Position numbers and translations under genes: made by a program. This document shows, one piece after another, positions 1-36,761 of a stretch of 64,000 nucleotides of DNA. The stretch covers positions 96,001 through 160,000 of the forward strand of contig JBBRLX010000005.1 of assembly GCA_038231135.1 (NCBI GenBank), read 5' to 3'. The notes below the pieces were generated by a model. The model was not told the DNA's origin, did no database searches, and worked only from the letters and a program-made list of their open reading frames with translations. Source of the DNA: Candidatus Eiseniibacteriota bacterium (GTDB lineage: Bacteria > Eisenbacteria > RBG-16-71-46). Position 1 is the first letter of the stretch; each line of letters starts with the position of its first letter.

Positions 1-1149
1 CGCCAGCTGGTGAAGCTCGCCGCCGCGTTCGAGAAGCCGGTGCGCTCGATCCCCGATCCCAGCCACATGCTGTCGGGCGACGCGTTCGGCCCGCCGCCGT
101 TCGAGCCCGAGGACCTGCTGTTCCGCGATCCGATCCGCACCGATCCCGCGGGGCTCGCGGCTGCGTACGCCGGCCGCTGCGTGCTGATCACCGGCGCGGG
201 GGGGTCGATCGGCTCCGAGATCTGCCGCCAGATTGCGCAGCTCGAACCGTCGCGGCTCGTGCTGTTCGAGAAGCACGAGGCCAGTCTGTTCTTCACCGAG
301 CGCGAGCTGCGCACGCTCGCGCCCCAGCTCGACATCGTCGCCGTGATCGGCGACATCACCGACGCCGAACGCGTGACGCAGGTGATGCACGACACGCGGC
401 CCGACGTGGTGTTCCACGCGGCCGCGTACAAGCACGTGCCGATGATGGAGCACCATCCGTCCGAGGCCTACAAGACGAACGTGCTCGGCACCCGCGTGGT
501 GGCCGAGGCCGCGGCGCGTGCCGGCGTGGGCAGCTTCGTGCTGATCTCCACCGACAAGGCCGTCGAGCCGGTCAGCGTCATGGGCCTCACCAAGCGCATC
601 GCCGAGCTGACGGTGATGGGCCTGAACGGGCCCGGCCAGCCCCGCTACATGGCCGTGCGATTCGGCAACGTGCTCGATTCGAGTGGCAGCGTGGTGCCGC
701 TGTTCCGCGAGCAGATCGAGAAGGGTGGCCCGATCACCGTGACCCACTCGGAGGTGACCCGGCTGTTCATGACCGTGCCCGAGGCCGTGCAGCTCATCCT
801 GCACGCCGTGACGCTCGGTACGGGCGGCGAGGTGTTCGTGCTCGACATGGGCAAGCCGGTGCGGATCCTCGACCTGGCGAAGACGCTCGCCCGGCTGCAC
901 GGGCTCCACCCGGGCCGCGACATCGATATCGTGTTCACCGGGCTCAGGCCCGGCGAGCGGCTGTTCGAGACCCTGTTCAACGAGCACGAGAAGATCTGGA
1001 AGACGCCGCACCCCAAGATCCTGATGGCGGCGAACGGCGCGGGTGGTCCCGACGGGCGCAACGAGCTCGACCGGCTGCTCCAGGTGCTCGACGATCGCAT
1101 CCGCCAGGTCGCCGCGCCGCCGGGGCAGCCCGCGAGCCCGCCGTCATGA
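1..1149 (+). CDS. Polysaccharide biosynthesis NDP-sugar 4,6-dehydratase, CapD/PglF/WbpM-like (5' end probably outside window)
   Basis: Frame is open from base 1. Motifs TGAGGSIG, HAAAYKHVP, STDKAV, MGLTK (the MxxxK variant typical of PglF/WbpM), VRFGNVL and GLRPGE. Confidence 0.93.
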   Translation, partial: RQLVKLAAAFEKPVRSIPDPSHMLSGDAFGPPPFEPEDLLFRDPIRTDPAGLAAAYAGRCVLITGAGGSIGSEICRQIAQLEPSRLVLFEKHEASLFFTERELRTLAPQLDIVAVIGDITDAERVTQVMHDTRPDVVFHAAAYKHVPMMEHHPSEAYKTNVLGTRVVAEAAARAGVGSFVLISTDKAVEPVSVMGLTKRIAELTVMGLNGPGQPRYMAVRFGNVLDSSGSVVPLFREQIEKGGPITVTHSEVTRLFMTVPEAVQLILHAVTLGTGGEVFVLDMGKPVRILDLAKTLARLHGLHPGRDIDIVFTGLRPGERLFETLFNEHEKIWKTPHPKILMAANGAGGPDGRNELDRLLQVLDDRIRQVAAPPGQPASPPS

Positions 1150-2675
1150 GCGCGCGCCGCGTGACCGCACGCAAGGAGAAGCGCGCCGCCGAGCTGCGCG
1201 CGCTCGAGACCGCCGAAGTTCGCGCCCGGCTCACGGCCGACATCACGGCCGGCCGCGGTGCGCAGGCGGCGGACATGGCCGCGGCCGGCTACGGCGCGGT
1301 CGCGGGGGGTGCGGAGCGCGGCGCGACCGCCGGCGGTCGGAGAGTTCCGCCGTGGGCGCGGTTCGCGCGCAGCGCGCAGGCGCCGGTTGCGGACGTGGGG
1401 TCCGGAGCGTTCGGCGGCCGCCTCGCGTCGGCCATGCTGATCCTCGCCGTCATCCTGGTGCCGCTCGTCCAGCCGATCGGGCCCGGCCAGATCGCGGTGG
1501 GGGACCTGCTCAACGTCCTGGGGATGGCGTTGTTCGGCATCGTGCTGCTGACGCGGCGGCCACGCATCACGCTGCCGCTCATCATGCCGGTGTTCGTGAT
1601 CGCGTTCGCGAGCCTGATCGCCACGCTGAACGCCGCGGCGCCGGGCCAGAGCCTCGTCACCATGGCGCAGGACACCTACCTCTACCTGTGGTTCGTGGTG
1701 CTGGTGAACGTGTTCGCCGACCACGGCGACCTCCGGCGGGTGCGCTGGACCTGGATGGTGGTGTCGGCCGCGATCTCGCTGTATGGCGTGTATGCGCTGA
1801 TGCACACGTATCATTACGGCCTCGGCGCCCTGTTCGGCGCCAAGGGCGAGCGCGCGGCGGGGACGTTCGGCAACGCGAACTTCTTCGCCGACTATCTGGT
1901 GATCAGCTTCTTCGTGATCGCGAGTCTCGGCTCGGAGACCTCGTGGATGATCCGGTTTCCGGCGCTGGGGGCGATCCTGCTCGGACTGATGGCGTCCAAG
2001 TCGCTGGGTGGACTGCTGTCGCTGATCGGCGGCCTCCTGGTCTGGTTCTTCGCACGCTCCGCGACCCGCCGGACCTCGGTGCTGGCGACGGTCGCCGTCG
2101 TCAGCGTGCTGGGTGGCGTGGCGCTGCTCGGCGGCTGGGTGGTGAAGGAGTGGGGCATCGGCCAGAAGGGCCTCAAGGTGATGACGAGCCAGAGCGTCGT
2201 CGGCCGGCTCGACAAGAGCTCCGCGAGCCGCATCCAGATCTGGACCGAGCTGCGCAACCGGTTCGAGCGGCGGCCGCTCGGCATCGGCCCCGGGAACAGC
2301 AGCGAGATCATGCTGTCGGTGTCGAATCGCGAGCGCCGCGGCGGATCGGTGCAGGGCAAGGAGGCGCACAACGACTATGTCGGCTACGCGGTCGAACGCG
2401 GCCCGCTCGCGCTGCTCGCGCTGTTCGCGATGATCGTGATCTCGCTGCAGGTGCTCCAGCAGGGCTGGTCGCGCGTCCGCGACCGGTCGTCGGCGGTGCC
2501 CGGGGCGTGGGTCGCGGCGCTCGCTGCCGGGCTGATCGCGAGCTCGATCCACTCGTTCACGATCGAGAAGCTCCACTTCCGGCACTTCTGGTTCTTTCTG
2601 GCGCTGCTGTTCGCGCTGAGCGCCCGACTTAAGACTCGTCCTCCACCGGCCGCGGAGCCCGTCCGCCCGCGCTGA
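1146..2675 (+). CDS. O-antigen ligase/Wzy-like polysaccharide polymerase family membrane protein
   Basis: About 12 hydrophobic segments. RAAGTFGNAN, SRIQIW...PLGIGPG and EAHNDY motifs. ATGA overlap with the upstream gene. Confidence 0.85.
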   Translation: MSARRVTARKEKRAAELRALETAEVRARLTADITAGRGAQAADMAAAGYGAVAGGAERGATAGGRRVPPWARFARSAQAPVADVGSGAFGGRLASAMLILAVILVPLVQPIGPGQIAVGDLLNVLGMALFGIVLLTRRPRITLPLIMPVFVIAFASLIATLNAAAPGQSLVTMAQDTYLYLWFVVLVNVFADHGDLRRVRWTWMVVSAAISLYGVYALMHTYHYGLGALFGAKGERAAGTFGNANFFADYLVISFFVIASLGSETSWMIRFPALGAILLGLMASKSLGGLLSLIGGLLVWFFARSATRRTSVLATVAVVSVLGGVALLGGWVVKEWGIGQKGLKVMTSQSVVGRLDKSSASRIQIWTELRNRFERRPLGIGPGNSSEIMLSVSNRERRGGSVQGKEAHNDYVGYAVERGPLALLALFAMIVISLQVLQQGWSRVRDRSSAVPGAWVAALAAGLIASSIHSFTIEKLHFRHFWFFLALLFALSARLKTRPPPAAEPVRPR

Positions 2676-2964
2676 CGCCCGCGGGGGAGGTCCAAACCCC
2701 AACGGGGCCCGGGGTGACGCCCGGAACGCTCCGCGGACACCCCGGGGGCGGCGGTAACGCTGGCTACGGCGTGCGAAGCCGCCCCGGACTCGAATCGGGC
2801 ATCCCCGGTGCCGGTTTCCCAGGCCCGTGAAACGCTGGCCCGGGATGTGCTGTTGAGTTCTGTACGTCGACGGCTGCCGCGCAAGCGGCTCCCGGGGACA
2901 AGCTGCTGCACGAGCGGCCGATAGCGTGAAAGCCTTGCCTGTGGCGGCCCGCGTTGCGGCTGCG

Positions 2965-2998
2965 GTGTCGTCCGGACAATCGTCGGTCCGGACGACAC
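2965..2998. promoter_or_regulatory. Perfect 13-bp inverted repeat with 8-nt spacer (operator or hairpin)
   Basis: GTGTCGTCCGGAC-aatcgtcg-GTCCGGACGACAC in the 670-bp intergenic region. Confidence 0.4.
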
Positions 2999-3138
2999 GG
3001 AGGGCGGTGGGTCGGACGGCCCGCCGTCGGCGAATTCGCTGTGTATTTTGGCGAATTCGGCAGTGAATTTCGCACGATTTCGCGGTTGGAGTCATCGAAC
3101 TCGCAGCATGATTTGTCGGCAGGGGGGTGCTTTGATGC

Positions 3139-3147
3139 TGCTATACT
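3139..3147 (+). promoter_or_regulatory. Candidate extended -10 promoter element for the GT4-wzx operon
   Basis: TG-c-TATACT in a locally AT-rich patch about 200 nt upstream of the GT4 start. No well-spaced -35 is visible. Confidence 0.45.
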
Positions 3148-3349
3148 CTTTGCTCCGTTCCGGGACGCAGGGTCGAGGCCGGCAGGATCCGGGTTCGAGC
3201 GCCGTCGTCCTGGCCCGGGCCCCGATCTGCCGCCTCCCATACGAGTCACCCGACGTCCGCGCCCGCTGCCCGCGGGACCGGTCGACGGTGAGTCCCCGAA
3301 TCCCGGCTTTGTGCCGGGGCACCAACGAACAGAACAGGATCGTCCGCGG

Positions 3350-4537
3350 ATGACCGAGAACCCATCCAGTTCAGCCTCCATGCCCGCCGAAGCCATCCGG
3401 CTCGTGGACATCATCAACCTGAGTTCTTCGGCGAACACGCTGCTCAAGAACCGGGTGCTGTCGATGCGCGCCCGCGGCGTGGACAATCGCATCCTGTGCA
3501 TCGACGGGCCGTACGTGCGGCTGCTGCGCGACCAGGGCATCCCGGTCGCGACCGCGGGCATGCCGCGCAGCATGAATCCGTTCGCCATGCTGACGTCCAC
3601 GTTCGAGATGGCCGCCTACCTCAGGCGCGAGCGCATCGACGTCGTGCACACGCACTGCTCGATGCCCGGCGTCCTGGGCCGCATTGCCGCCAGGCTGGCC
3701 GGCGTGCCGGTGATCATCCACACGATCCACGGGCTCCACGTGCACGACCGCTGGCATCCGGTGCTGCTCAATCTGTTCACGTTCGCCGAGAAGTTCTGTG
3801 GCCGCTTCACCGACATGCTGCTGAGCCAGAACCGCATCGATCTCGAGCTGGCCCGCCGGCTCGCGCTGGTGCCCGCCGGCCGGCTGCGGTTCATCGGCAA
3901 CGGCATCGACATCGATCGCTTCCGCCCGCAGCCGCGCGTCGCTGCGGCTGGGCCGCTCACGATCGTCTGCACCGCAAGGCTCGAGCCGGTGAAGAACCAC
4001 CCGCAGCTGTTCCAGGCCATGAAGCTGCTGACCGAGCGCGGCATTCCGGCCCGCGTCTGGCTCGTGGGCGACGGTCCGCTCAAGCCCGAGTACGTGCGCA
4101 TGTGCGCCGAGCTCGGCATCGCCGACCGGGTCGAGTTCCTGGGGTATCGCGATGACGTGCCGGGGCTGCTCGCCAGGGCCGACGTGTCCGTGCTGACCTC
4201 GGTCAAAGAGGGCATCCCGCGGGCGCTGCTCGAGGCCATGGCCATGGAGCTGCCGGTGATCGGCACCCGCGTGGTCGGCACCGACGAGACCGTGCGTGAC
4301 GGCGAAACCGGCTGGCTCGTCGAGTACGGCGACGCCGAGGCGCTCGCCGAGCGGCTGGCGCGTCTCGCGGCCGATCCCGCGCTGCGCGCACGCCTCGGAC
4401 AACGGGGCCGTCAGGTGGTCGAGGCCGAGTTCAATGAACGCCAGATCGTGGAGTCGCTGGCCGCCATCTACCGCCAGATCCTGAGCACCAAGGGGCTCGG
4501 TGCCTCGATCTCCCAGCCGCACGCGGTGAAGCCGTGA
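3350..4537 (+). CDS. Glycosyltransferase family 4 (GT-B)
   Basis: VHTH, HTIHG, IGNGID, ARLEPVKN, FLGYRDDV and EGIPRALLEAMA (E-x7-E) motifs. Start is ATG 3350 or 3380; the ORF-track extension back to 2954 looks non-coding. Confidence 0.92.
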   Translation: MTENPSSSASMPAEAIRLVDIINLSSSANTLLKNRVLSMRARGVDNRILCIDGPYVRLLRDQGIPVATAGMPRSMNPFAMLTSTFEMAAYLRRERIDVVHTHCSMPGVLGRIAARLAGVPVIIHTIHGLHVHDRWHPVLLNLFTFAEKFCGRFTDMLLSQNRIDLELARRLALVPAGRLRFIGNGIDIDRFRPQPRVAAAGPLTIVCTARLEPVKNHPQLFQAMKLLTERGIPARVWLVGDGPLKPEYVRMCAELGIADRVEFLGYRDDVPGLLARADVSVLTSVKEGIPRALLEAMAMELPVIGTRVVGTDETVRDGETGWLVEYGDAEALAERLARLAADPALRARLGQRGRQVVEAEFNERQIVESLAAIYRQILSTKGLGASISQPHAVKP

Positions 4538-6099
4538 GCGAGCCGATTTCGGTGCCGAGCATGGGCATCGAGCCCACGGGTGGCTACGAACCCCCGGAGG
4601 GCCCGGTTAAGGCCCTGGCCTCGGGGACTTCGGTGCGCACCGCGGCGCGGATCGGCAAGAACTTCTCGTTCCGGATGGCCGCGCAGATCCTGAGCGCCAT
4701 GATCAACGTCGGCGCCATGGTGCTGCTCGGCAACTACCTGAGCGCCGAGCGCTACGGCGACTACGTGTTCTACTACGCGCTGATCCCGCTGATCGCGAGC
4801 CTCAGCGATCTCGGCACCGGCGTCATGATCACGAAGGAGATCGCGCGCGAGAAGCTGATGGGTCCGCGGTTCTACGGCGACGCCCTGCTGATCAAGGGGG
4901 TGGTCGGGCTCGCGCTGCTCACGATCGTGTCCGTGGCGTCGTGGACCACGCTCGATCACGGTCGCGCGCTGCTCGTGACGCTGGTGTGCGCGACCGCGCT
5001 CATCGACTTCAGCCAGGACGTGTCGGTGTGGATCGTGCGCGCGCACGAGCGGCTCGACGTCGAGGCGGTGCTGCTGCTCGCGAGCCAGGTGGCGTGGATG
5101 GGAGGCATCGCGGTGGGCGCGGCGCTCCACCTGTCGCTGCCGTGGCTGCTGGCGTCCGCGAGCGTCGCGTTCGCGATGCGCACGCTGATCGGCATCTGGA
5201 TCGTGCGGCGCCGGTTCTACCGCCCGGTGTTCCAGCCGGATTACGCCCGGCTCCGGAAGTTCGTGCTGCAGGCGCTGCCGTTCGGCCTCGCGATGTTCAT
5301 CGTGGTGCTGTACGGCCGCATCGGCGTGCTGATGCTGAAGGCGATGGCCGGCAAGGCCGACGTGGCGCTGTTCAACGTCGGCTACATGCTGTCCCAGCCG
5401 CTCGGATTCATCTCGACCGCACTGAGCATGGCGGCGTTCCCGGCGCTCGCCCGCCGCGCCCAGCGCGGCCACGGCGCGATCTCGAGCGCGCTGCGGCGCA
5501 CCACCAAGTACCAGTTCCTCGTGACGCTGCCGATGATGGCGGGCCTGTTCCTGCTGGCCGAGCGCGTGATCCCGCTGCTGTTCCACGGCACCGACTTCGC
5601 GCGCGCCGGGTTCGCGCTCAAGCTCATGAGCCTCGGGCTGGCGTTCATCTTCATGAACCTGATGTCGCGCTACGTGCTGGCGGCGATCGACGCGAACCAG
5701 GTGTATCTCCGGGCGGTGCTGGTCGGGCTGGCGGTGAATGTCGCGATCGGCGTGATGCTGATCCCGCGCTACGGTTTCGCCGGCGCCTGCATCGCCCAGC
5801 TGTCCGGCGAGCTGTCGATCTTCGTGATGTGCCAGAGCGCGCTCACGCGCTACGTGAGCGTGCGCGAGGTGTTCGCCGCGCTGGTGCGGCCCGCGTTGGC
5901 GGCGCTCGGCAGCGGCGCCGTCGTGTGGCTGCTGCGGCATTCCAACCTGGCGCTGGCCGTGGTCGCGGGCGGCGCCACCTACGTCGTGCTGCTGTTCGTG
6001 GTGCGTGCGTTCAACGACGACGAGCTGCGCCTGATGCGCGGCGTGCTCCAGTCGTTCGTCCCCGGTTCGGCCCCCGGCCGTGCCGAACCTCGTTCGTGA
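4534..6099 (+). CDS. Wzx-type polysaccharide flippase (MOP/PST family)
   Basis: About 14 TM segments. YLSAERYGDY, DLGTG..ITKEIAR, FPALAR and LIPRYGFAGA motifs. GTGA overlap with the GT4 stop. Confidence 0.9.
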   Translation: MSEPISVPSMGIEPTGGYEPPEGPVKALASGTSVRTAARIGKNFSFRMAAQILSAMINVGAMVLLGNYLSAERYGDYVFYYALIPLIASLSDLGTGVMITKEIAREKLMGPRFYGDALLIKGVVGLALLTIVSVASWTTLDHGRALLVTLVCATALIDFSQDVSVWIVRAHERLDVEAVLLLASQVAWMGGIAVGAALHLSLPWLLASASVAFAMRTLIGIWIVRRRFYRPVFQPDYARLRKFVLQALPFGLAMFIVVLYGRIGVLMLKAMAGKADVALFNVGYMLSQPLGFISTALSMAAFPALARRAQRGHGAISSALRRTTKYQFLVTLPMMAGLFLLAERVIPLLFHGTDFARAGFALKLMSLGLAFIFMNLMSRYVLAAIDANQVYLRAVLVGLAVNVAIGVMLIPRYGFAGACIAQLSGELSIFVMCQSALTRYVSVREVFAALVRPALAALGSGAVVWLLRHSNLALAVVAGGATYVVLLFVVRAFNDDELRLMRGVLQSFVPGSAPGRAEPRS

Positions 6100-6113
6100 G
6101 CCAAGGAGCCCGC

Positions 6114-7583
6114 ATGTCCAGCTCGGGAGTGTCGGTGATCGGGAGTCCCCTGTCGGAACGGGCGCGGATGCTGCCCCTGCGCGCGCACGATCCGTCGTCC
6201 AAGCTCGTGTCGCTGTCGCTGGGCATCGAGTCGAACGATTTGATCGACCGCTCGCTGGCCGAGATGGCCGAGTTGCCGTACGTGGACGACATCCTCGCGC
6301 TCCCCGACGTGCACCAGAAGGCGCAGATGGAGATCCCATCCAGCATCGCCGTCACGACCCGAGACGTGATCGTGCCCGAGTTCACCTCGGCCGCGGTCAA
6401 CGACGGCATGGGGGTGGTGGTCACCGACCTCGACGCATCGGCGCTCACGCCCGAGCGGCTGAGGGCGTTCTTCACGCGCGTGAACTCGAATTCCGCGGCG
6501 CATCCGTTCGACGGCAACCGCTACAGCATCTCGGGTGACGAGCTGCGCCGCGTGATCGCGGTGGGCGGCCGGGGCGCGCTCGGCCGCTACGGATTCCCGG
6601 AGTCGGTGCTCGACCGGTTCGAGGACCGCGGCGCGATCTCGGGCGTCGCCGACGTGCGCGCCGAGGACGTCGTGCCGCTGCACCTGCTCACCACGCGATT
6701 CAGCCGCTCCGAGATGGGTCTCAACTTCGGCGGCAACCACTTCCTCGAGGTCCAGGTGGTCGACAAGGTGCTCGATCCCATCGCGTCGACGTGGGGGCTC
6801 CGCGAGGGCCAGGTGGTCGTGATGTACCACCTCGGTCCGGGACCGTTCTCGGGCACGCTGCTGCATCACTATTCGCGCCGCACCAAGCTCAAGTCGCACC
6901 GCGTCCCGATGTTCTTCCTGTCCAAGCTGATGTTCCACTACCTGCAACGCATGGGCCGCACGAATCCCGCGAAGGCGTGGGCGATGCACTTCCGCCAGAA
7001 CCGCTGGACGCCGTTCCCGGTGCGGTCGGAGGAGGGTCAGCTGTTCCGGAAGGCACTCGCCATGGCGCTCAACTTCGGCTACGCCTACCGGCTCGCCACC
7101 GTGCGCGCGATCGTCGACGGACTCACCGAGGCGGTGTCGCCGAACGTACGCGCGGAGCTGCTGTGCGACATCTCGCACAACGGCATCACCGAGGAGACGT
7201 GGGGCGGCCGCCGCGGCTGGATCGCGCGGCACAACGCCTGCCGGCTCGCTCCGGGCGGCCCCGCGATCGTGGCCGGATCGTACGACGTGGCGTCGTATCT
7301 CGGTGTCGGCCTCGACGGCGGCCCCGACGGCCGGCTGCATTCGTACGACCACGGCGCCGGCAACCTGATCGAGCACTTCCGCGACCGCGGCACGCTCGAT
7401 CGCGACGCCGGCACCGTCACCCGGCTCAAGATGACCCGCGGCAAGAACGCGGAAGTCGTGCGCAGCGAGCAGGTGCCGATGCGCTCGGCGATGCCGATCG
7501 ATCTCGTGATGGAATGCCTCGAGCGCAATGGCGTGGTGCGTCCGGCCGTGCGGTTGCGGCCGATCGGCAACTTCAAGAACTGA
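6114..7583 (+). CDS. Divergent RtcB-fold protein (489 aa)
   Basis: AAGGAG RBS at 6103. RtcB motifs appear in the correct order: LPDVH, AVNDGM (canonical DINCG), GGNHFLEVQ, MYHLG, DISHN, RHNA, AGSY, YDHGAG and terminal RLRPIGNFKN. Confidence 0.85.
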   Translation: MSSSGVSVIGSPLSERARMLPLRAHDPSSKLVSLSLGIESNDLIDRSLAEMAELPYVDDILALPDVHQKAQMEIPSSIAVTTRDVIVPEFTSAAVNDGMGVVVTDLDASALTPERLRAFFTRVNSNSAAHPFDGNRYSISGDELRRVIAVGGRGALGRYGFPESVLDRFEDRGAISGVADVRAEDVVPLHLLTTRFSRSEMGLNFGGNHFLEVQVVDKVLDPIASTWGLREGQVVVMYHLGPGPFSGTLLHHYSRRTKLKSHRVPMFFLSKLMFHYLQRMGRTNPAKAWAMHFRQNRWTPFPVRSEEGQLFRKALAMALNFGYAYRLATVRAIVDGLTEAVSPNVRAELLCDISHNGITEETWGGRRGWIARHNACRLAPGGPAIVAGSYDVASYLGVGLDGGPDGRLHSYDHGAGNLIEHFRDRGTLDRDAGTVTRLKMTRGKNAEVVRSEQVPMRSAMPIDLVMECLERNGVVRPAVRLRPIGNFKN

Positions 7584-7599: not shown

Positions 7600-8457
7600 A
7601 TGGCCCTAGAATCCCCACGCGAGCTGCGAGCGCTCTGCCAGGCCGGCAAGGAAGTCGACCCGGGGTGGTACTTCGTGCACCGCCGGCTGTCGATCTACGT
7701 CACGTGGCTGCTGCTGCACACGCGCGTGACGCCGAACCAGGTGACGCTGCTGATGATGGTCACGGGCACCGTGGGCGCGGCGCTGCTGGTGCCGCATGCG
7801 GCCGCGCTCAACGTGTGCGGATTCCTGGTGCTGTACCTGGCATTCCTGCTCGACAAGGTCGACGGTGAGATCGCCCGCTACCGCGGCGTGTCGTCGACGC
7901 GCGGCCTGCTGCTCGACCGACTGCACCATCTGGCGATCGAGCCGCTGGTGTTCCTCGCCGCCGCGTGGCACGACGGGTCCACGTCCGGATCGCTCGGCGC
8001 CTGGAACGCGGGCTGGGCGATCATCGTGCTCGGCAACATCGTGGACGAGCACCAGCACCTGTCGGCCTACATCCTGTTCAAGCACCTGCGCGGCACCCAC
8101 CGACGCCCCGCCCGGGGCCTTAGGGTCCCGCCGCCCGGGCTCGCCGTCGCGCTCCGGCTGATGCGGCCGCTCAAGGCGTTCCGGATGTTCATCATCGCGG
8201 TGCCCGCCCTCGCTGCCGCCTATGTCGCGGAAGCGTGGACCGGGGCGCCGGTCGTGAGGTGGTACCTGTACGCGAGCACCGCCGGGCTCGCCGTGTTCCT
8301 GGCCTTCCAGGCCTATTACTACTTCCAGTTCAAACTCGAAGCGGAAATCGGCGAACAGGCGGAGCTCCTCGCGGACGATGCCGGCGCCGGATCCGCAGCG
8401 AGCGGGACCCCGGAACCCGGGCGCGAGACTGCGCTGCGGGCCGTGTCCCGTGGCTGA
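7600..8457 (+). CDS. CDP-alcohol phosphotransferase family membrane protein
   Basis: TPNQVT helix followed by DKVDGEIAR-x8-GLLLDRLHH (DxxDGxxAR...GxxxDxxxD with the last Asp replaced by His). About 6 TMs. AAGGA RBS. Confidence 0.85.
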   Translation: MALESPRELRALCQAGKEVDPGWYFVHRRLSIYVTWLLLHTRVTPNQVTLLMMVTGTVGAALLVPHAAALNVCGFLVLYLAFLLDKVDGEIARYRGVSSTRGLLLDRLHHLAIEPLVFLAAAWHDGSTSGSLGAWNAGWAIIVLGNIVDEHQHLSAYILFKHLRGTHRRPARGLRVPPPGLAVALRLMRPLKAFRMFIIAVPALAAAYVAEAWTGAPVVRWYLYASTAGLAVFLAFQAYYYFQFKLEAEIGEQAELLADDAGAGSAASGTPEPGRETALRAVSRG

Positions 8458-8491: not shown

Positions 8492-11400
8492 ATGATTGCC
8501 CATCCTCCAGCTCTGGCCCGCCTCCGGCGCGGCGACGCGCCGTTCACCCGCAGCCTCACCCGCGTCGCGGCCACGGCGGCGCTTGCGCTCGCATGTGTCG
8601 CAGGCAACGCCGCGGCCACCGGCACATTCTACGTCGACAACGCAAGCGGATCCTGCTCGGACGCGGGTCCCGGCACGCTCGCGAATCCGTACTGCTCGAT
8701 CGCGGCCGCGATCCTCGCGCACAACGGCCCCGGCACCACGATCCTCGTGCGGCCGGGCGTGTATCCCGAGATGGTGACGATCCCGGCCTCGGGCGCCCCG
8801 GGCAGTCCGTTCGTGATCCAGGCCAACGGCGGCACCGTGGTGATCGAGGGCTCGGACGACTTCGGCAATCCGTCGCTGTGGGCGCCGGTCGCCGGCACCG
8901 AGTACGTGGCGGCCTCGGTGATCTGGACGCCGCTGCAGGTGTTCGCCGACGGCCAGCGGCTCACCGCGTCGACGAACGCGCCGGGCACGCTGCCCGTGGG
9001 CACGTTCAACTACATCGCGGGCTCCGGCCTGCACGTGAACCTCGGCACCAACAGCCCCGGCCTGCACGGCGCGCGCGTCGGCCACCGCCTGCACGGCTTC
9101 ACGATGACGGGCAAGTCGTGGGTCACGATCGACGGCTTCGAGGTGACGCACACCGAGGATCGCGGCATCAACGTGGCCGGCATCACCTCGCCCCAGACGT
9201 TCACGTCGAACATCACGCTCAGCAACAATCGTGTCCTGTACGCCAACGGCTACGGCATCCAGGTGTCGATCGGCTCCAACGACCTCATCGCCGGCAACGT
9301 CGTCGGGTTCAGCGCCGACCACGGCATCTACGTCTCGACCGGCTCCACGGCGTGCACGATCCAGGACAACGAGTCGTTCTCGAATGCGCGCCCCACGATC
9401 CGCGCGGCGAACGGCATTCACCTGAACGCCTCGACCAACAACCTGGTCCAGCGCAACCGGCTGCACGACAACCAGGACACCGGCCTCCAGATGAACAGCG
9501 GCGCGAACAACAACGTGTCGCGCGAGAACCAGTCGTGGAACAACGGCGATCACGGGTTCGACCACCTGAGCTCGACCGGCAACCAGCACATCAACGACGT
9601 GGCGTACGGCAACTACAAGGACGGGTTCTCGATCGAAGGCAACTCGCCCAACACCAGCGTCGTGAACTGCATCGCCACCGACAACGGCCTCACCACGAAC
9701 GAATACGACATCTGGGTCGACCCGAACTCGAGCGTCGGTTTCGTCTCGGACTACAACATCTTCTGGAACTCGACGGCGCAGAACCCGTTCAAGTACATCG
9801 CCACGCCGTATGCCACGCTGTCCGCGTATCAGGCGGCGTCCGGCAAGGATTCCAAGACCAAGCAGCAGAATCCGCTGTTCATCTCGCCGGCGAACGGCAA
9901 CTTCCACCTGCTCACCGGCTCACCGGCGGTGGACTGCGCCAACGCCTCGACCCCGAACTGGCTCGCCACGGACGCCGACGGCCGCGCGCGGGTGGACATC
10001 TCGACGGTGTCGAACACCGGTCTCGGCTCGCCGCTGTACTCCGATCGCGGCGCCGACGAGTACTACACCACGCCCGGCAGCGATCATGCGCCGGCCGTCG
10101 CGGGACCCACGACGGCCACGGTCGGCGAGCGCCAGATGCTGGTGGTGAACGTCACCGTGTCGGATGTCGACAACGACCCGATCCACACGCTGACCGCGAA
10201 CCTGGCGGTGCTGCCGTCGCCGAACGACGCGGTGTTCCTCACGAACGCGTCGCACACGGCCGGCACGCTCACCTGGACGCCGACGAACTCCGGCGGCCCC
10301 TACGCCGTGACGTTCACGGCGACGAACGCCAAGAGCGCATCGCGGACCACGTCGGTCACGGTCGTCAATTCGGACCTCGCGCCGGTCGTGAACTCGCCGC
10401 CGTCGGTGACCGCCACCGAGAATTCACCGCTCACCGTGACCGTCACGGCGTCCGACCCTGACAACCAGGCGATCCAGTCGCTGTCCGCGGATCTCGCGGG
10501 CCTGCCGGCGGGCAACAACGCGGTGTTCTCGACGAACGGCTCGAACACCGTGGGCACGCTGACCTGGACGCCGACGTTCTCGGACGCGCCCGGTCCCTAC
10601 ACCGTGACGTTCACCGCTTCGAACGCGCTCACCACGACATCGGTCAGCTCGATCGGCGTGACGAACGTGGACCACCCGCCGGTCGTGGTCGCGCCCGCCA
10701 CCGCGACCGTGGCGGAGAACGGCGCGCTGTCGCTCGACGTGACCGCGTCGGATGCCGATGGCGATGCCATCGACCAGCTGGTCGCGAACGTGGCCGGGCT
10801 GCCCGCGGGCAACAACGCCACGTTCACCGCCAATCCCGGCAACACGTCGGGGACGTTCCACTGGACCCCGACGTTCGACGACGCGCCCGGGCCCTATACC
10901 GTGACGTTCACCGCCGTGAACGCGCTATCGGGATCGGCCCCGACCTCGATCACGGTGACGAACGCCGATCGCCCGCCGACCGTGACGGCGCCGGCGTCGG
11001 TCACGGCCCTGGAGGGCGTCTCCGACACCATCCAGGTCACCGCCGTCGATCTCGACGGCCAGCCGGTCACGTCGTTCACGGCGAACCTCGCAGGCCTGCC
11101 CGCCGGGAACACCGCGGTGTTCACGACGAATCCCGCGAAGAGCCTGGGGCTGCTCGTGTGGACCCCGTCGTTCTCGGACGCGCCCGGCCCCTACGCGGTG
11201 TCGTTCACGGCCGCGAACGCGCTGTCGGGCTCGGCGTCCACGTCGATCGCGGTCACGAACGTCGACCGCGCGCCCGTGATCACGGCGCCCGCCACCGCGA
11301 CCGCGCCCGAGAACGGCGTGTTCTCGCTCGACATCACGGCGGTCGATCCCGACGGACAGCCGGTGACGATCCTGACCGCGAACCTGTCGGGGCTGCCGGC

Positions 11401-14400
11401 CGGCAACAACGCGACGTTCACGCCAAACCCGTCGAAGAGCGCCGGCACGTTCACCTGGACGCCGACGTTCGCCGATGCCCCCGGTCCGTATGCGGTGTCG
11501 TTCACGGCGTCGAACGCGCTCACCGGCACCGCGACCACCTCGATCTCCGTGTCGCATTCCGATCGTGCACCGGTGGTGTCGGCGCCGGGCACCGTGACCG
11601 GCGCCGAGAACGGCGCGATCACCGTGTCGGTCACCGCGTCCGACCCCGACAATCAGTCGATCACGTCGCTGACCGCGAACCTGTCGGGGCTGCCGGCCGG
11701 GAACTCCGCGGTGTTCACGTCCAATCCCGCGCATACCGCGGGCACGCTCACCTGGACGCCCACGTTCGCCGACGGCCGCGTGCCGCCCTACACCGTGTCG
11801 TTCACGGCCACGAACACGCTGAGCGGCAGCGCGACCACGGCGATCACGGTCGCGAACGTCGATCGCGCGCCGGCCATCACGGTGCCGGCGGCCGTGGCCG
11901 GCAGCGAAGGCGTTGCGCTCTCGATCCCCGTCACCGTGGCGGATCCGGACGGGCAGGCGGTCAGCTCCTTGACCGCCGACCTCAGCGGCCTGCCGTTCGG
12001 CAGCAACGCCGCGTTCACCCAGAACCCCAGCCACACGTCGGGCACGCTGACGTGGACACCGACGTTCAACGACGGCCGTCCGGCGTCCTACGGCGTCTCG
12101 TTCACCGCCTCGAACGCGCTCACGGGCAGCGCGTCGACCGCGATCACGATCGCGAACGTGGACCGTGCGCCGGTGGTGACCGCGCCGTCCGTCGTGACGC
12201 GTCCCGAGCACCAGCAGATCGTGCTCCAGGTGACCGCGGCCGATCCCGACGGCCAGCCGATTGGCGCCCTGACCGCCGATCTGTCGAGCCTGCCGCCGGG
12301 CAACGACGCGACGTTCACGTCGAGCGCCGACCACACCACCGGCACGTTCTCGTGGCGTCCCGATTTCGCCAGCGCGGCCAGCTACCCGGTCGTGTTTCTT
12401 GCCTCGAACGCGATCACCGGATCCGCGACGACGACGTTCACGATCCAGAACGCCGATCGCGCACCCGTGGTCGCGGCGCCCGCGTTCGTGAGCGCGAGCG
12501 AGAACGGTCTCGTCACCGTGACCGTGACCGCGTCGGACCCCGATGGCGATTCGATCACGAGCCTGACCGCGAATCTCGCGAACCTGGCGCCCGGCAACGA
12601 TGCCGTGTTCACGAGCAACGCCGCACACACCGGCGGGACGCTGACGTGGACGCCGAACTTCGACGACGGCCGTCCGGCGACGTACGACCTGGTGTTCATC
12701 GCGGCGAACGCGCTGTCGGGTTCGAAGGTCACCGCGATCCAGGTGCAGAACGTCGACCGCCCGCCGGTGGTGACCGTGCCGTCGGTCGTCCACGTCGTGG
12801 AGTCGAACATTATGGTGATGCACATCACCGCGAGCGATCCCGATGGCGATCCGATCGCGGCGCTCACCGCGAACCTCGCCGGATTGCCGCCCGGGAACAA
12901 CGCGACGTTCCAGCAGGGCGACCTGTCGTTCGCGCCGGCGCGCGCGGGCAACGCCGCGCACACCGGGGTCGCAAATTCCGGGACGCCCGTGGTGCAGGCG
13001 GGGTCCAACGCCGGGGCGCCCGGCGGACATCCGGGCCGCAGGGCGGAGACCGGCGACGGCACGCCAGGGCAGGACTTAGGCGGCGGCCAGGGCGCCAGCT
13101 CCGTGACGTACACCCTGATCTGGACGCCGGGATTCGCGGACGCGCCCGGCCCGTATCCGGTGTCGTTCACCGCGTCGAATGCGCTCACCGGCTTCGCCAC
13201 GAGTTCGATCGACGTCGCGAACGACGACCGCCCGCCGGTCGTCACCGCGCCCGCGACGGCGACGGCGGCCGAAGGCGCGACGGTCACCGTCGATGTGACC
13301 GCCGCGGATCCCGACAGCGAGGCGCTCGGCGCGCTCACTGCCGATCTGTCGGGGCTGCCGCCCGGCAACAACGCGGTGTTCACGCCGGCCGCCGACCAGT
13401 TGTCGGGCACGCTGACCTGGACTCCGTCATTCGCGGACGCGCCCGGCCCCTACAAGATCACGTTCATCGGCTCGAACGCGCTGTCGGGTTCCGCGACCAC
13501 CAGCATTGCGGTCGCGAACGTCGACCGTGCGCCGGTCGTGACCGCGCCGGCGTCGGTGACGGCGCCCGAAGCGCAGGTGGTGACCGTGACCGTCACGGTG
13601 GCGGACCCCGATCAGGACGCGATCGCGTCGCTCACCGCCGATCTGTCGTCGCTGCCCCCGGGCAACGACGCGGTGTTCACGCCGGCGGCCGACCGGCTGT
13701 CGGGCACGCTGACCTGGACCCCGGCGTTCGCGGACGCCCCGGGCCCCTACAAGATCACGTTCATCGGTTCGAACGCGCTGGCGGGTTCGGCGTCCACGAG
13801 TCTCACGGTTGCGAACGTCGATCGCGCTCCGGTCGTGACCGCGCCGGCGTCGGCGGCTGCAACCGAAGGGCAGCTGGTGACGGTGACCGTGACCGCCGCG
13901 GATCCCGACCACGACGCGATCACGTCGCTCACCGCGGACCTGTCGGCGCTGCCCGCGGGTAACGACGCGGTGTTCACGCCGGCCGCCGACAACCTGTCGG
14001 GAACGCTCACGTGGACCCCGGGCTTCGACGCGGCGCCCGGGCCGTATTCGGTGATGTTCACCGCGACGAACGCGGCGAGCGGCTCGGCCACGTCGGGCAT
14101 CGCGGTCGCGAACGTCGACCGCGCGCCGATCGTCACGGCTCCGGCGCTCGTGACCGGCGCCGAGATCTCGCTGATCACGATCGCCGTCGCGGCCTCGGAC
14201 CCCGACGGTGATCCGATCGATTCGCTCACCGCGAACCTGTCGGCGCTGCCGGCCCTCAACGACGCCGTGTTCCTCGTCGCCCCCGATCACAAGTCGGCGC
14301 TGTTCACGTGGACCCCGCTGCCGGGAGACTCCACGAACGGGCCGTATGCGGTGTCCTTCACCGCGTGGAACGCGCTGTCGCGCGTCGCCGGCACCGCGAT

Positions 14401-14752
14401 CACCGTGACGAGCCTCCTCGAGCGGCCGGGGGTGGCGAAGCCGCTGGGCGACCGCCTGGCGGACGCCGTGCTGCCCCGGGCCGTTCCGCTCGTGCTCGCA
14501 GTGCAGCCGACGCCAAACCCGATGCACGGCGCGGGGGCGCTCCAGTTGTCGCTGCCGGCCGCCGGCCCCGTGCGGCTCGAGGTGTTCGACGTCACCGGCC
14601 GGCGGGCGGCGATGCTGCTCGACTCGCCGCGCGTCGAGGCCGGCGTCCATCAGGTGCCGCTGGCCCCGCGGCGGCTCGGACCGGGGGCGTATTACTATCG
14701 GCTGCAGGCGGTTTCGGGAGTTCGCACCGGCCGGTTCGTCATTATCGACTAA
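8492..14752 (+). CDS. Giant secreted protein 1: signal peptide, right-handed beta-helix, 14 Ig-like repeats, FlgD/T9SS-like C-terminal domain
   Basis: Signal peptide ending NAAA, FYVDN...NPYCSI helix cap, Asn-ladder repeats, about 100-aa DRAPVVTAP...DPDG...LTWTP repeats, and a PNP...EVFDVTGRR...GAYYYRL...GRFVIID end. Alternative start GTG 8450. Confidence 0.88.
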   Translation: MIAHPPALARLRRGDAPFTRSLTRVAATAALALACVAGNAAATGTFYVDNASGSCSDAGPGTLANPYCSIAAAILAHNGPGTTILVRPGVYPEMVTIPASGAPGSPFVIQANGGTVVIEGSDDFGNPSLWAPVAGTEYVAASVIWTPLQVFADGQRLTASTNAPGTLPVGTFNYIAGSGLHVNLGTNSPGLHGARVGHRLHGFTMTGKSWVTIDGFEVTHTEDRGINVAGITSPQTFTSNITLSNNRVLYANGYGIQVSIGSNDLIAGNVVGFSADHGIYVSTGSTACTIQDNESFSNARPTIRAANGIHLNASTNNLVQRNRLHDNQDTGLQMNSGANNNVSRENQSWNNGDHGFDHLSSTGNQHINDVAYGNYKDGFSIEGNSPNTSVVNCIATDNGLTTNEYDIWVDPNSSVGFVSDYNIFWNSTAQNPFKYIATPYATLSAYQAASGKDSKTKQQNPLFISPANGNFHLLTGSPAVDCANASTPNWLATDADGRARVDISTVSNTGLGSPLYSDRGADEYYTTPGSDHAPAVAGPTTATVGERQMLVVNVTVSDVDNDPIHTLTANLAVLPSPNDAVFLTNASHTAGTLTWTPTNSGGPYAVTFTATNAKSASRTTSVTVVNSDLAPVVNSPPSVTATENSPLTVTVTASDPDNQAIQSLSADLAGLPAGNNAVFSTNGSNTVGTLTWTPTFSDAPGPYTVTFTASNALTTTSVSSIGVTNVDHPPVVVAPATATVAENGALSLDVTASDADGDAIDQLVANVAGLPAGNNATFTANPGNTSGTFHWTPTFDDAPGPYTVTFTAVNALSGSAPTSITVTNADRPPTVTAPASVTALEGVSDTIQVTAVDLDGQPVTSFTANLAGLPAGNTAVFTTNPAKSLGLLVWTPSFSDAPGPYAVSFTAANALSGSASTSIAVTNVDRAPVITAPATATAPENGVFSLDITAVDPDGQPVTILTANLSGLPAGNNATFTPNPSKSAGTFTWTPTFADAPGPYAVSFTASNALTGTATTSISVSHSDRAPVVSAPGTVTGAENGAITVSVTASDPDNQSITSLTANLSGLPAGNSAVFTSNPAHTAGTLTWTPTFADGRVPPYTVSFTATNTLSGSATTAITVANVDRAPAITVPAAVAGSEGVALSIPVTVADPDGQAVSSLTADLSGLPFGSNAAFTQNPSHTSGTLTWTPTFNDGRPASYGVSFTASNALTGSASTAITIANVDRAPVVTAPSVVTRPEHQQIVLQVTAADPDGQPIGALTADLSSLPPGNDATFTSSADHTTGTFSWRPDFASAASYPVVFLASNAITGSATTTFTIQNADRAPVVAAPAFVSASENGLVTVTVTASDPDGDSITSLTANLANLAPGNDAVFTSNAAHTGGTLTWTPNFDDGRPATYDLVFIAANALSGSKVTAIQVQNVDRPPVVTVPSVVHVVESNIMVMHITASDPDGDPIAALTANLAGLPPGNNATFQQGDLSFAPARAGNAAHTGVANSGTPVVQAGSNAGAPGGHPGRRAETGDGTPGQDLGGGQGASSVTYTLIWTPGFADAPGPYPVSFTASNALTGFATSSIDVANDDRPPVVTAPATATAAEGATVTVDVTAADPDSEALGALTADLSGLPPGNNAVFTPAADQLSGTLTWTPSFADAPGPYKITFIGSNALSGSATTSIAVANVDRAPVVTAPASVTAPEAQVVTVTVTVADPDQDAIASLTADLSSLPPGNDAVFTPAADRLSGTLTWTPAFADAPGPYKITFIGSNALAGSASTSLTVANVDRAPVVTAPASAAATEGQLVTVTVTAADPDHDAITSLTADLSALPAGNDAVFTPAADNLSGTLTWTPGFDAAPGPYSVMFTATNAASGSATSGIAVANVDRAPIVTAPALVTGAEISLITIAVAASDPDGDPIDSLTANLSALPALNDAVFLVAPDHKSALFTWTPLPGDSTNGPYAVSFTAWNALSRVAGTAITVTSLLERPGVAKPLGDRLADAVLPRAVPLVLAVQPTPNPMHGAGALQLSLPAAGPVRLEVFDVTGRRAAMLLDSPRVEAGVHQVPLAPRRLGPGAYYYRLQAVSGVRTGRFVIID
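10078..14410 (+). repeat. Tandem array of 14 coding Ig-like repeats of about 300 bp
   Basis: Recurring gaccgcgcgccggtcgtg / gatcccgacgg / acctggacgccg words with a period near 300 nt. Confidence 0.85.
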
Positions 14753-14769
14753 CCGTCCAGCAGCTCGTG

Positions 14770-14789
14770 GCTCCCGTCGCGACGGGAGC
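14770..14789. terminator. Perfect 20-bp palindrome downstream of giant gene 1 (hairpin, terminator-like)
   Basis: GCTCCCGTCGCGACGGGAGC followed by GTTT. The U-tract is weak. Confidence 0.4.
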
Positions 14790-14972
14790 GTTTGGACCCG
14801 GACCACGTCCGAACGCTCTCGCCGTCGCCGTTTCCGGCGGTTCTCCTGTCCGCACCGCCGTGCTAGGATCCCATCCGCCCGCCGGCTTGTCCGAGGGCGG
14901 CTCGCCCCAGCCGATCCCGGCGCGAGCTCCCCGACTGCAACGGATCCAGGAGGATCCGAGAGGACGACACCA

Positions 14973-17900
14973 TTGCGCAGGGATTTTGACCATGCCCATC
15001 CCCGGGGCACGACACCCGATGACCCATTGAAAACCGCACGCCGCTCGCGGGCGCGCAGGCACGTTCCCGGCGCCATCGCGCTGCTGGCCCTGGGTCTGTG
15101 CCTGCCGGCCGTGGGGCTCGCCGATACCTTCTACGTCGATGGCGCGAATCCGGGCGCTTCGGATGCAAATCCCGGCACCGAGGCGCAGCCGTTCCGCACC
15201 ATCCAGGCCGCGCTCGATCTCCAGGCGCTGCCGGGCAACACGATCTACGTGAAGCCCGCGATCTATCGCGAGCTGGTCAACCTGCCGCGCTCGGGTGCTA
15301 CCAACAACCCCATCATCATCGAAGGCCTCGGCACCGGCGTGATCGTCGACGGCTCCGACAATTTCGGCACTGCCGCCCAGTGGACGCCGGTGTCGGGCGA
15401 CGTGTACCTCGCGGCCTCGGTGACGTGGAGCCCGCTGCAGGTGTTCGTCAACGGGCAGCGGCTCACGCCGTCCGTCGATGCGCCGGCGTTCATGGCGGCG
15501 AACACGTTCCGCTGGATCAGCGGCGCGGGGCTCTACGTGAACGCCGGCGGCGGCAATCCGGGCCTGCAGCAGACGCTCGTCGGGCGCCGCGCCAACGGGT
15601 TCCGGCTGTCGACCAAGGTCTGGGTCGTGATCCGCAACTTCACCGTCACGCGGTTCGAGGATCGCGGCATCTATCTGTCCAGCGGATCGGATTCCTCCAC
15701 CGTCTACGGCAACACGGTCACGTTCGGCGCGAAGTACGGCATCGCGGTCACGAACTCGGATGGCGTGACCGTCGACGGCAACGTGGTGGGCGATCACCTC
15801 GATCACGGCATCTATCTCGGCAGCGCGACCCATTGCCTGGTGCGGCGCAACGAGTCCTACCGGAACGCGCGGCCCAACCAGCGCGCCGCGAACGGCATCT
15901 ACCTGACGACCTCCACGAACAACCGCATGGAGGGCAACCGGTTGCACGACAATCAGGACACCGGACTCCACTTCCAGGACTCGAGCAACAACCTGTCGAT
16001 CCAGAACCGCTCCTACAACAACGGCGACCACGGGTACGACCACCTCGGGACTTCGGGCGTCGTGCACATCAACGACACGGCTTACGGCAATTTCAAGGAC
16101 GGGTTCTCGATCGAAGGGAATTCACCCGGCAACACGATCTACAACTGCATCGCGATCAACAACGGCCTCACCACCAACGAATTCGACCTGTGGGTGGACC
16201 CGGCCTCGAGCGTGAACTTCACCGGCGACTACAACGTGTTCTGGAACTCCACGAGCCAGGTGCCCGTGAAGTACGTGGCCACCCAGTATTCGACGGTCGC
16301 CGCGTATTCGTCCGTGTCGGGGCAGGACGTGCACTCGCTGCAGGTGAACCCGATGTTCGCCGACCCCGCAAATGGCGATTACCACCTGCTCGGCGGCTCG
16401 CCCGCGATCGACTGCGCGAACTCGTCGGTGCCGAACTGGCCCGTGACCGACGCCGAGGGCACCACCCGCCGCGACGACCCGTCGACGACGAACACCGGTG
16501 TCGGGCCGGTCACCTATGGCGACCGGGGCGCCCTCGAGTTCATCCCTCCGGGCGGCTCGGGCGATCAGGCGCCCGTGATCCTGGCGCCGGTCACCGCGAA
16601 CGGCGCGGAGAGCGGCATCGTCACCGTGAACGTCACCGCGAGCGATCCGGACGGCCAGCTGATCAACAGCCTGACCGCGAGCCTGACCGGCCTGCCCGCG
16701 GGGAGCAACGCCGTGTTCACCACGAATGCCACTCAGACCGCGGGCACGCTGACCTGGACGCCCACGTTCGCCGACGGCCGCGCCGCGCCGTACGTGGTGT
16801 CGTTCACGGCCTCGAACGCGCTGTCCGCAACGGCCTCGACCTCGATCACGGTCGCCAACGTGGACCGCCCGCCCGTGGTCACGACCCAGCACCAGAAGGC
16901 GGGCAGCGAGAACAGTCCAATCACGATCAACGTGACCGCGGTCGATCCCGACCTCGACGCGATCACGTCGCTGACCGCCGACGTGTCGGCGTTGCCGGCG
17001 GGGAACAACGCGGTGTTCACACCCAACGCCAACAAGAACGCGGGCACGTTCATCTGGACTCCGACGTTCGCGGATTCGGGCGGGCCCTGGCGCGTCGTGT
17101 TCGTGGGCTCGAACGCGCTGACCGGACGCGACACGTCGCTGATCACCGTGGCGAACGTCGATCGCGCGCCGGTGGTAACCGCGCCCGCGACGCAGACCAC
17201 GGCTGAGAACTCCACGCTCACATTCAGCATCACCGCGGTCGATCCCGACGGTGATCCGATCTCGAGCCTGACCGCGTCCGGGCTGCCGGCCGGCGCCACG
17301 TTCACGGCGGACCCGGGCAAGGCCAGCGGCACGTTCGCGTGGACGCCGACGTTCAACGACGGCGGCGGTCCCTACAACGTGTCGTTCAGCGCCACGAACG
17401 TGCTCGTGGGCACCAGCGTGACTGCGGTCACCGTCACGAACGTCGATCGCCCGCCGGTCGTCACGGCGCCGGCGCAGGCGGCCGCGACCGAAGGCCAGCC
17501 GCTGTCGGTGGCCGTCACGGCCACCGATCCCGACGGGCAGACGATCCTGTCGCTGACCGCGACCGGCCTGCCGCCCGGCGCGACGTTCACGCCGAACGGT
17601 TCGCGCACCGCGGGCGTGCTCGACTGGACGCCGGGATTCGACGCCGCTCCCGGTCCCGACACCGTGCGGTTCGTGGCGACGAATTCGCTGAGCGGCTCGG
17701 CCGCCACCGCGATCGTGATCGCGAACGTCGACCGTGCGCCGGTGGTCACGGCCGCGACCTCCGTCATGGCGTCGGTGGGGCAGCAGCTCGTGCTGACGAT
17801 CTCGGCCGCGGATCCCGACGGCGAGGCGATCGCCTCGCTCACCGCGAACCTGGCGTCGCTGCCCGCCGGCGACGCCAGCTTCACCCCGAATCCGTCCAAC

Positions 17901-22211: not shown

Positions 22212-22415
22212 TGGCCCGTCGGACTCTTCGAGTCCGTGTTGCGACGCGTTTGTTCTTGACCCGACGCGTGGCGCAAACGACCATCTCCCGGCACTGCGTT
22301 TTGCGCGTTCATCCCCCCGCGTGTGCGGCCGATCACAACAACTGGACAGATGATCAACGTTCCGTGGCTGATGCTCTTCCCCCCGCCCCGGACCCTAGGG
22401 AAGGTCGGTCCGTTC

Positions 22416-36720: not shown

Positions 36721-36761
36721 GGGGTGCGGACTGCGTACGGGCGCCTCCCGACACCAGCGCT

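Follow-up and report, generated by a model that had tools for sequence, protein, structure and literature searches.

RtcB enzymes (PF01139), represented by P. horikoshii PH1602, T. thermophilus TTHA1785 and human RTCB, are RNA ligases that convert a terminal phosphate to X-ppG by way of a His-GMP intermediate (PMC9745838), and in the literature covered here the substrates described for them so far are RNA or DNA ends. Differently built enzymes activate the phospho-substituents of glycans. In the LicA-LicC-LicD phosphocholine pathway and in PntC phosphonate tailoring, a kinase step is followed by nucleotidyl activation and transfer of the phospho-substituent to the glycan (PMC6697681). LicC and PntC are NTP_transf_3 cytidylyltransferases with neither an RtcB fold nor a covalent His intermediate, and that study detected no GTP activity in them. 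In IPCT-DIPPS (PDB 4mnd) a nucleotidyltransferase is coupled to a CDP-alcohol phosphotransferase (CDP-AP), so that an alcohol phosphate is activated and then handed over, as we propose for the locus described here. Both IPCT-DIPPS and AF2299 (PDB 4o6m) differ from our locus in depending on a cytidylyltransferase activator, a CDP donor and a fourth Asp as base (PMC4634129).

The window, a 64,000-nucleotide stretch of a Candidatus Eiseniibacteriota genome, contains an RtcB-like gene within a polysaccharide operon (Table 1). The product of this gene, P0001, has an RtcB fold, and RtcB is its sole Pfam match (E 1.7e-45, residues 48-488), with no NTP_transf_3 or CTP_transf_like domain; it falls far below the cut-offs of all three NCBIfam RtcB models (82/407, 66/1150 and 58/272 bits), which cover subfamilies only. 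Compared with the RNA ligases, P0001 is without Asp95, Arg238, Lys351, Arg408 and Tyr451, has Asp for Cys98, gains Lys69 and a basic-aromatic insertion, and sits in a glycan context with a CDP-AP rather than with archease, RtcA or PrfH. We consider it very probable that P0001 belongs to a conserved RtcB-kind variant that serves glycan synthesis and is not an RNA ligase.

Table 1. Features of the polysaccharide operon and of the RtcB-like gene, in window coordinates.
Feature	Position	Strand	Basis or remark
Initiating phosphoglycosyltransferase / 4,6-dehydratase fusion, 3' part	10..1149	+	Polysacc_synt_2 E 3e-112
Wzy-type polymerase / O-antigen-ligase family membrane protein	1146..2675	+	Wzy_C E 3e-16
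GT4 glycosyltransferase	3380..4537	+	Glycos_transf_1 E 8e-39; start from gene caller
Wzx flippase	4534..6099	+	Polysacc_synt E 1e-30
Shine-Dalgarno-like AAGGAG ahead of RtcB-like start	6103..6108	+	Sequence
RtcB-fold protein P0001, NDG sub-branch, 489 aa	6114..7583	+	Pfam, alignments
Codons for A94-V-N-D97	6393..6404	+	Asp95 lost, Cys98 to Asp (P. horikoshii numbering)
Segment His239-Gly308	6828..7037	+	Arg238 lost; ~25 residues longer than canonical; basic, aromatic
His413, equivalent of His404 nucleophile	7350..7352	+	Alignments
Partner CDP-AP	7600..8457	+	CDP-OH_P_transf (Pfam); D1xxD2GxxAR...GxxxD3xxxH; fourth Asp replaced by His110
Large beta-helix + Ig-repeat protein	8492..14752	+	Pfam

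The operon begins upstream of the window, on genome contig C5, with genes for Wza, Wzz, a Wzc-like ATPase and a DegT aminotransferase. As the first-pass annotation had it, the RtcB-like gene, which starts with ATG behind the AAGGAG, lies 14 nt from the Wzx stop (6099) and 16 nt from the CDP-AP ATG (7600). That annotation had also noted no rtcA, rtcR, archease or prfH in the window, and a search of the whole 93%-complete genome likewise detected neither RtcA nor RtcR nor archease, and nothing for PrfH that passed the cut-off; P0001 is the genome's only PF01139 match. The ~700-nt gap between wzy and the GT4 gene (2676-3379), in which no sigma-70 match was found, is not seen in relatives. Three giant proteins follow one another at 8492-27068, the first two with beta-helix and Ig repeats (Pfam) and the third at 22350-27068, and beta-helix/Ig-repeat proteins lie 3' of the CDP-AP, or are fused to it, in many Eisenbacteria-type loci. 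A second sugar cluster of the window (31958-39802) encodes a methyltransferase, a GT4-cupin fusion, an NTP transferase, GH4, a ROK kinase and a fusion of an epimerase with a 3-dehydroquinate-synthase-like domain, a gene set that we take to be reminiscent of C7-cyclitol (acarbose/validamycin-type) pathways.

Pairwise alignment with P. horikoshii RtcB, from which residue numbering and register were taken, bears out the altered and kept motifs that had been read from the sequence. YDINCG has become AAVNDG (Asp95 to Ala94, Cys98 to Asp97), HTGSR is HLGPG, HRKGA is RHNAC, HGAGR is HGAGN, and EEAPGAYK aligns to EQVPMRSA with loss of Tyr451; GNHFLE, YH, SHN, DHGAG, PDxH and the terminal Lys are kept. 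Residues were counted in 203 sequences comprising 30 canonical RtcBs, 44 with Asp at the Cys98 position (NDG) and 129 other deviants. All 44 NDG sequences have the three metal ligands His203, His234 and His329 (H209, H239 and H355 in P0001), His404, Ser385 and the guanine contact Glu206 (E212); the second guanine contact, Lys480 (K488), is present in 42, and each of the two GTP-phosphate contacts, Asn202 and Asn330, in 43 (roles from PMC9745838). The three metal His, His413 (120/120), Asn208, Glu212 and Lys488 are invariant among the 120 homologues listed, at ~60% identity.

Two metal-site positions depart from this pattern. Asp95, a ligand of the metal that touches the beta and gamma phosphates of GTP (PMC9745838), is found in 30/30 canonical and 3/44 NDG sequences; Cys98 is likewise found in 30/30 canonical sequences, with Asp97 in its place in 44/44 NDG proteins, as follows from how that group is defined. 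Since Cys98 to Ala abolishes every step of canonical RtcB (PMC9745838, PMC8051266, PMC10630183), activity with Asp at this position is not to be assumed, and with Asp95 also lost, classical GTP chemistry may be altered. The Asp now at position 98 might serve as a bridge between the two metals. The other deviants have lost Asp95 and keep Cys98 in 128 of 129 cases, and a new Lys69 is shared by 43/44 NDG sequences and 116/129 other deviants. The proposed signature therefore needs to be divided: Asp97 marks only the NDG sub-branch, but loss of Asp95 is common to a wider clade that mostly keeps Cys98.

The contacts to the 5'-OH RNA strand are gone. Arg238, which holds two phosphates of that strand, is present in 30/30 canonical and 0/44 NDG sequences, and Lys351 and Arg408 are likewise lost in the NDG sequences of the 203-sequence set. 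The other contacts of the strand, Arg190, Gln194 and His242, are not kept in P0001 by pairwise alignment, with the multiple alignment unsure at Gln194. In E. coli RtcB, removal of the Arg238 equivalent slows sealing 200-fold and guanylylation only 3-fold (PMC8051266, also for the strand contacts). The first-pass suggestion that basic substrate contacts had been lost thus applies to the RNA-specific ones; a new near- or fully invariant basic set (K69, R136, R256, K258, R263, K271, R326, R372, R423, R442) is present across the 120 listed homologues. The segment from His234 to Gly308 also differs, with a median of 70 aa in NDG proteins versus 45 in canonical ones, a net charge of +8 versus 0, and 9 versus 2 aromatics, and this segment, which starts at His239 in P0001, is a candidate membrane- or acceptor-binding surface.

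In all, 323 proteins match P0001 at E <= 0.001, and nearly all of the 120 listed are at least 57% identical to it. A profile search of 50% representatives gave a much larger set of wider relatives, which are without Asp95 and mostly keep Cys98. In a FastTree phylogeny a long branch (support 0.90) separates the 173 deviants from the 30 canonical sequences, although monophyly of the deviants is only loosely tested here because all 30 canonical sequences come from one phylum. Within the wider Asp95-less clade, Cys98 to Asp marks a nested sub-branch. Relaxed selection, which would have told against a repurposed enzyme, is not seen: dN/dS of the RtcB-like protein is 0.11-0.29 in eight homologue pairs (dS being rough at this GC) and does not exceed the 0.31-0.37 obtained for the GT4, CDP-AP and Wzx genes next to it.

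Genomic context points in the same direction. Among 60 homologue loci from a species-genome collection, several of which share a genome and some of whose record labels may be wrong, glycan genes occur in 56, and in 35 the gene immediately 5' of the RtcB-like one encodes Wzx. The CDP-AP gene comes next on the downstream side in 40, is separated by one gene in two, lies elsewhere in the locus in six and is not seen in 12; of these 12 loci, five stop within 321 nt and seven have more than 700 nt of downstream DNA. The corresponding figures for the 43 NDG loci are 26, 0, 6 and 11. Of the 17 loci that keep the Cys, mostly from Patescibacteria, 16 have a CDP-AP gene, so the pairing predates the Cys98 to Asp change. 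Twenty canonical RtcB loci of the same phylum served as controls; 214 genes were called in them, and Pfam covered the 140 closest to RtcB: archease was found in 9/20, Wzx plus GT4 in 1/20 (on the opposite strand), an epimerase in 1/20, a PMT-type transferase in 1/20 and a CDP-AP in 0/20. A profile specific to the partner CDP-AP subfamily found nothing in 156 canonical-type viral and metagenome loci. Across 201 genomes of the phylum, 29 encode an NDG protein and all 29 also encode the partner CDP-AP with His in place of the fourth Asp (His-D4); the CDP-AP occurs alone, beside Wza/Wzz genes, in two of the remaining 172. We attach no p-value to this co-occurrence because kin genomes are not independent. 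The enrichment in glycan loci that the first-pass annotation anticipated is thus clear, and together with selection and the loss of 5'-OH-strand residues it supports the suggestion of an RtcB subfamily repurposed away from RNA.

No IPCT/LicC-type enzyme was found beside the CDP-AP among 250 representative proteins scanned from the 60 loci and the window, a set made up mostly of proteins of 90-1000 aa. The nucleotidyltransferase matches in that set were a PF00483/PF12804 protein (L055), a single PF14907 protein in each of L001 and L038, and one that is encoded 27 kb away within the window. Several loci have layouts of their own. In six (L004, L005, L008, L009, L017, L031) the CDP-AP is upstream, mostly on the opposite strand with GT4, and in the five of the upstream type placed on the tree it is a subtype seen in Planctomycetes. 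In L001 (654-6614, opposite strand), genes for a PqqD-like protein, NTP_transf_5, an ABC transporter and an HPr-kinase/GT2 fusion lie directly 5' of a GT4-Wzx-RtcB block, and in L060 (4310-17134) a distant member sits in a phosphonate glycan locus that encodes PEP mutase, an Fe-alcohol dehydrogenase and Wzx and has three CDP-AP-like genes.

Gene fusions place the RtcB-like domain at the flippase: five database proteins join it in frame to Wzx (three Wzx-RtcB and two GT4-Wzx-RtcB). Of 17 distant loci without a CDP-AP profile match (six metagenome, five Patescibacteria, six Actinomycetota), 16 contain glycan genes. Every one of the 17 also has a kinase-like neighbor, which may be an APH-family protein, a thymidylate-kinase-like protein or an HPr-kinase-like P-loop protein, the last assigned by motifs with only a weak Pfam match. 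Two further proteins fuse the HPr-kinase-like P-loop protein to the RtcB-like domain. These kinase neighbors and fusions fit a phosphomonoester substrate. In 12 Patescibacteria loci (L044-L050, L052-L055, L058), two tandem RtcB-like paralogs precede the CDP-AP, and the second has His404 to Pro and Asp65 to Asn with the metal His and Lys480 kept. At L051 (7028-9344) the His-less paralog and a CDP-AP occur by themselves amid housekeeping genes, outside a glycan locus.

The partner has both the D1xxD2GxxAR...GxxxD3 motif and the helical membrane fold of CDP-APs (model pLDDT 91), and its best sequence and fold matches among solved proteins are AF2299 (E 1e-17) and the IPCT-DIPPS fusion, both of which prefer soluble donors (PMC4634129). 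D85, D88, G89, A92, R93, G102 and D106 are invariant in 27 aligned sequences, and His110 replaces the fourth Asp in 27/27. PIP synthase uses the fourth Asp as its catalytic base (PMC4634129); for CEPT1, a His has been suggested to act as base (PMC10156783). The P(D/N)xx(T/S) motif, which contacts the pyrimidine, is present in the window's partner (TPNQVT) and varies across the family, and CDP-APs are described as CDP-binding (PMC4634129). The RtcB and CDP-AP trees agree only in part (patristic r 0.71, 41 pairs), and in five loci the RtcB-like protein is a close relative but its CDP-AP belongs to another subtype. In L014, L015, L019, L020, L022, L023 and L030 the CDP-AP is in frame with a 900-2400-aa protein, which in L022 carries beta-helix and FlgD-Ig domains (Pfam). 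We know of no CDP-AP that uses a GDP donor.

With the RNA-gripping residues lost and the gene in a polysaccharide operon beside a CDP-AP, P0001 probably activates a small phosphate compound for the sugar coat. As to how, we tentatively favor, at a little under an even chance, a His-dependent nucleotidyltransferase that makes X-ppG from a small metabolite, with the CDP-AP then moving X-P to a lipid-linked repeat unit before flipping. GTP would guanylylate His413, as the kept residues suggest, and X-P, a small phosphomonoester derived from a polyol, cyclitol or sugar, would accept the GMP to give X-ppG. The neighborhood suggests that the His-D4 CDP-AP would take this in place of a CDP-alcohol and, on the cytoplasmic side, attach X-P to the repeat unit carried by undecaprenyl, ahead of flipping by Wzx. 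The RtcB-like enzyme would then occupy the slot held elsewhere by LicC/IPCT/PntC-type cytidylyltransferases, a likeness of role and not of family membership. A phosphomonoester is the common thread. Phosphates of this kind are what kinase partners produce and, once activated with a nucleotide, what CDP-APs use up. An inositol-1-phosphate synthase gene adjoins another CDP-AP gene (G000:C2:195201-196702), which gives the genome a route to inositol phosphate, a candidate for the substrate. This proposal is built on fold, residue pattern, selection, gene linkage and fusions, from which the chemistry is extrapolated. It must also accommodate the near-complete loss of Asp95 and the Asp for Cys98, the CDP-binding motif of the partner, the 12/60 loci without a CDP-AP, the partly discordant trees and 12 other NTP_transf_3 matches in the genome, which could supply the CDP-AP in trans. 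The more specific idea of a GDP-alcohol route to phosphodiester-decorated glycans, in which the RtcB-fold enzyme acts on a small metabolite and feeds a guanosine-donor, His-base CDP-AP subfamily, is possible, though we would expect it to fail more readily than to hold.

The order of events could also be reversed. P0001 may be a complete glycan or lipid ligase, with the partner acting first and leaving a terminal phosphate that the RtcB-like enzyme activates as X-ppG and joins to a hydroxyl of the lipid-linked glycan; that phosphate would come from the CDP-AP product (e.g. phosphatidyl-X-phosphate) or, in other branches, from a kinase product. We regard this scheme, including its phosphate source, as unlikely but deserving of attention. 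Asn202, kept in 43/44 NDG proteins, anchors the attacking hydroxyl in RtcB (PMC8051266), PIP synthases do give products with a terminal phosphate (PMC4634129), and the long basic-aromatic segment is what a membrane or acceptor surface would lead one to expect. The Wzx fusions and the kinase-partnered loci in which no CDP-AP is seen also speak for it, and the His-less Patescibacteria paralog, with metal His and Lys480, could do the joining step alone. However, the CDP-AP would then need CDP-DAG or CDP-alcohol from elsewhere, and its closest solved relatives use soluble donors. A phospholipid on every repeat unit, moreover, is poorly compatible with Wzy/Wza export. Distinctly less probable is an enzyme that uses no NTP, taking instead an NDP-sugar or NDP-alcohol donor, either for NMP exchange via His413 (GalT-like) or for moving a sugar phosphate onto a hydroxyl of the glycan (Stealth/LicD-like). 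In E. coli RtcB the D75A change severely impairs guanylylation of the 3'-phosphate, and here the ligand of the beta/gamma-phosphate metal is lost clade-wide and Lys69 is gained; a donor without a gamma phosphate would leave the Asp95 metal site unneeded. Against this reading, the GTP-phosphate contacts Asn202 and Asn330 are kept in 43/44 NDG sequences, and the Asp at 98 might bridge the two metals.

We give very little credence to a divergent but genuine RNA 3'-phosphate/5'-OH ligase that came to lie in a glycan operon by chance. The RtcB fold, the presence of most catalytic residues and the status of P0001 as the genome's sole PF01139 match are what such a ligase would show, and its homologues carry the automatic database name 'tRNA-splicing ligase RtcB'. 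Against it stand the lost RNA contacts and the contrast between glycan genes in 56/60 loci and archease in 9/20 canonical controls; in addition, canonical RtcB and an NDG-type protein occur together in some genomes, and 58/201 genomes of the phylum yielded no match to RtcB. That P0001 has lost catalysis and serves the flippase or the CDP-AP as a scaffold or binding protein seems just as improbable: both metal-site changes hit residues essential or central in canonical RtcB, but the three metal His, His413, Asn208, Glu212 and Lys488 are invariant in the 120 listed homologues at ~60% identity, and selection on the protein is at least as strict as on its neighbors.

Our search of mostly open literature listed no paper on an RtcB in glycan synthesis, and a passing mention may exist. 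If the nucleotidyltransferase reading is right, a branch of RtcB that activates sugar or polyol phosphates would be a new nucleotidyltransferase chemistry in glycan biosynthesis, and many 'tRNA-splicing ligase' annotations in uncultured phyla would be wrong. The Cys98 to Asp, Asp95-less site offers a test of RtcB chemistry on a hard-ligand metal center, and the RtcB-like/CDP-AP module, at two genes, is small and directly assayable. P0001 and its relatives would then represent one branch of a wide clade that took RNA-ligase chemistry into cell-envelope synthesis.
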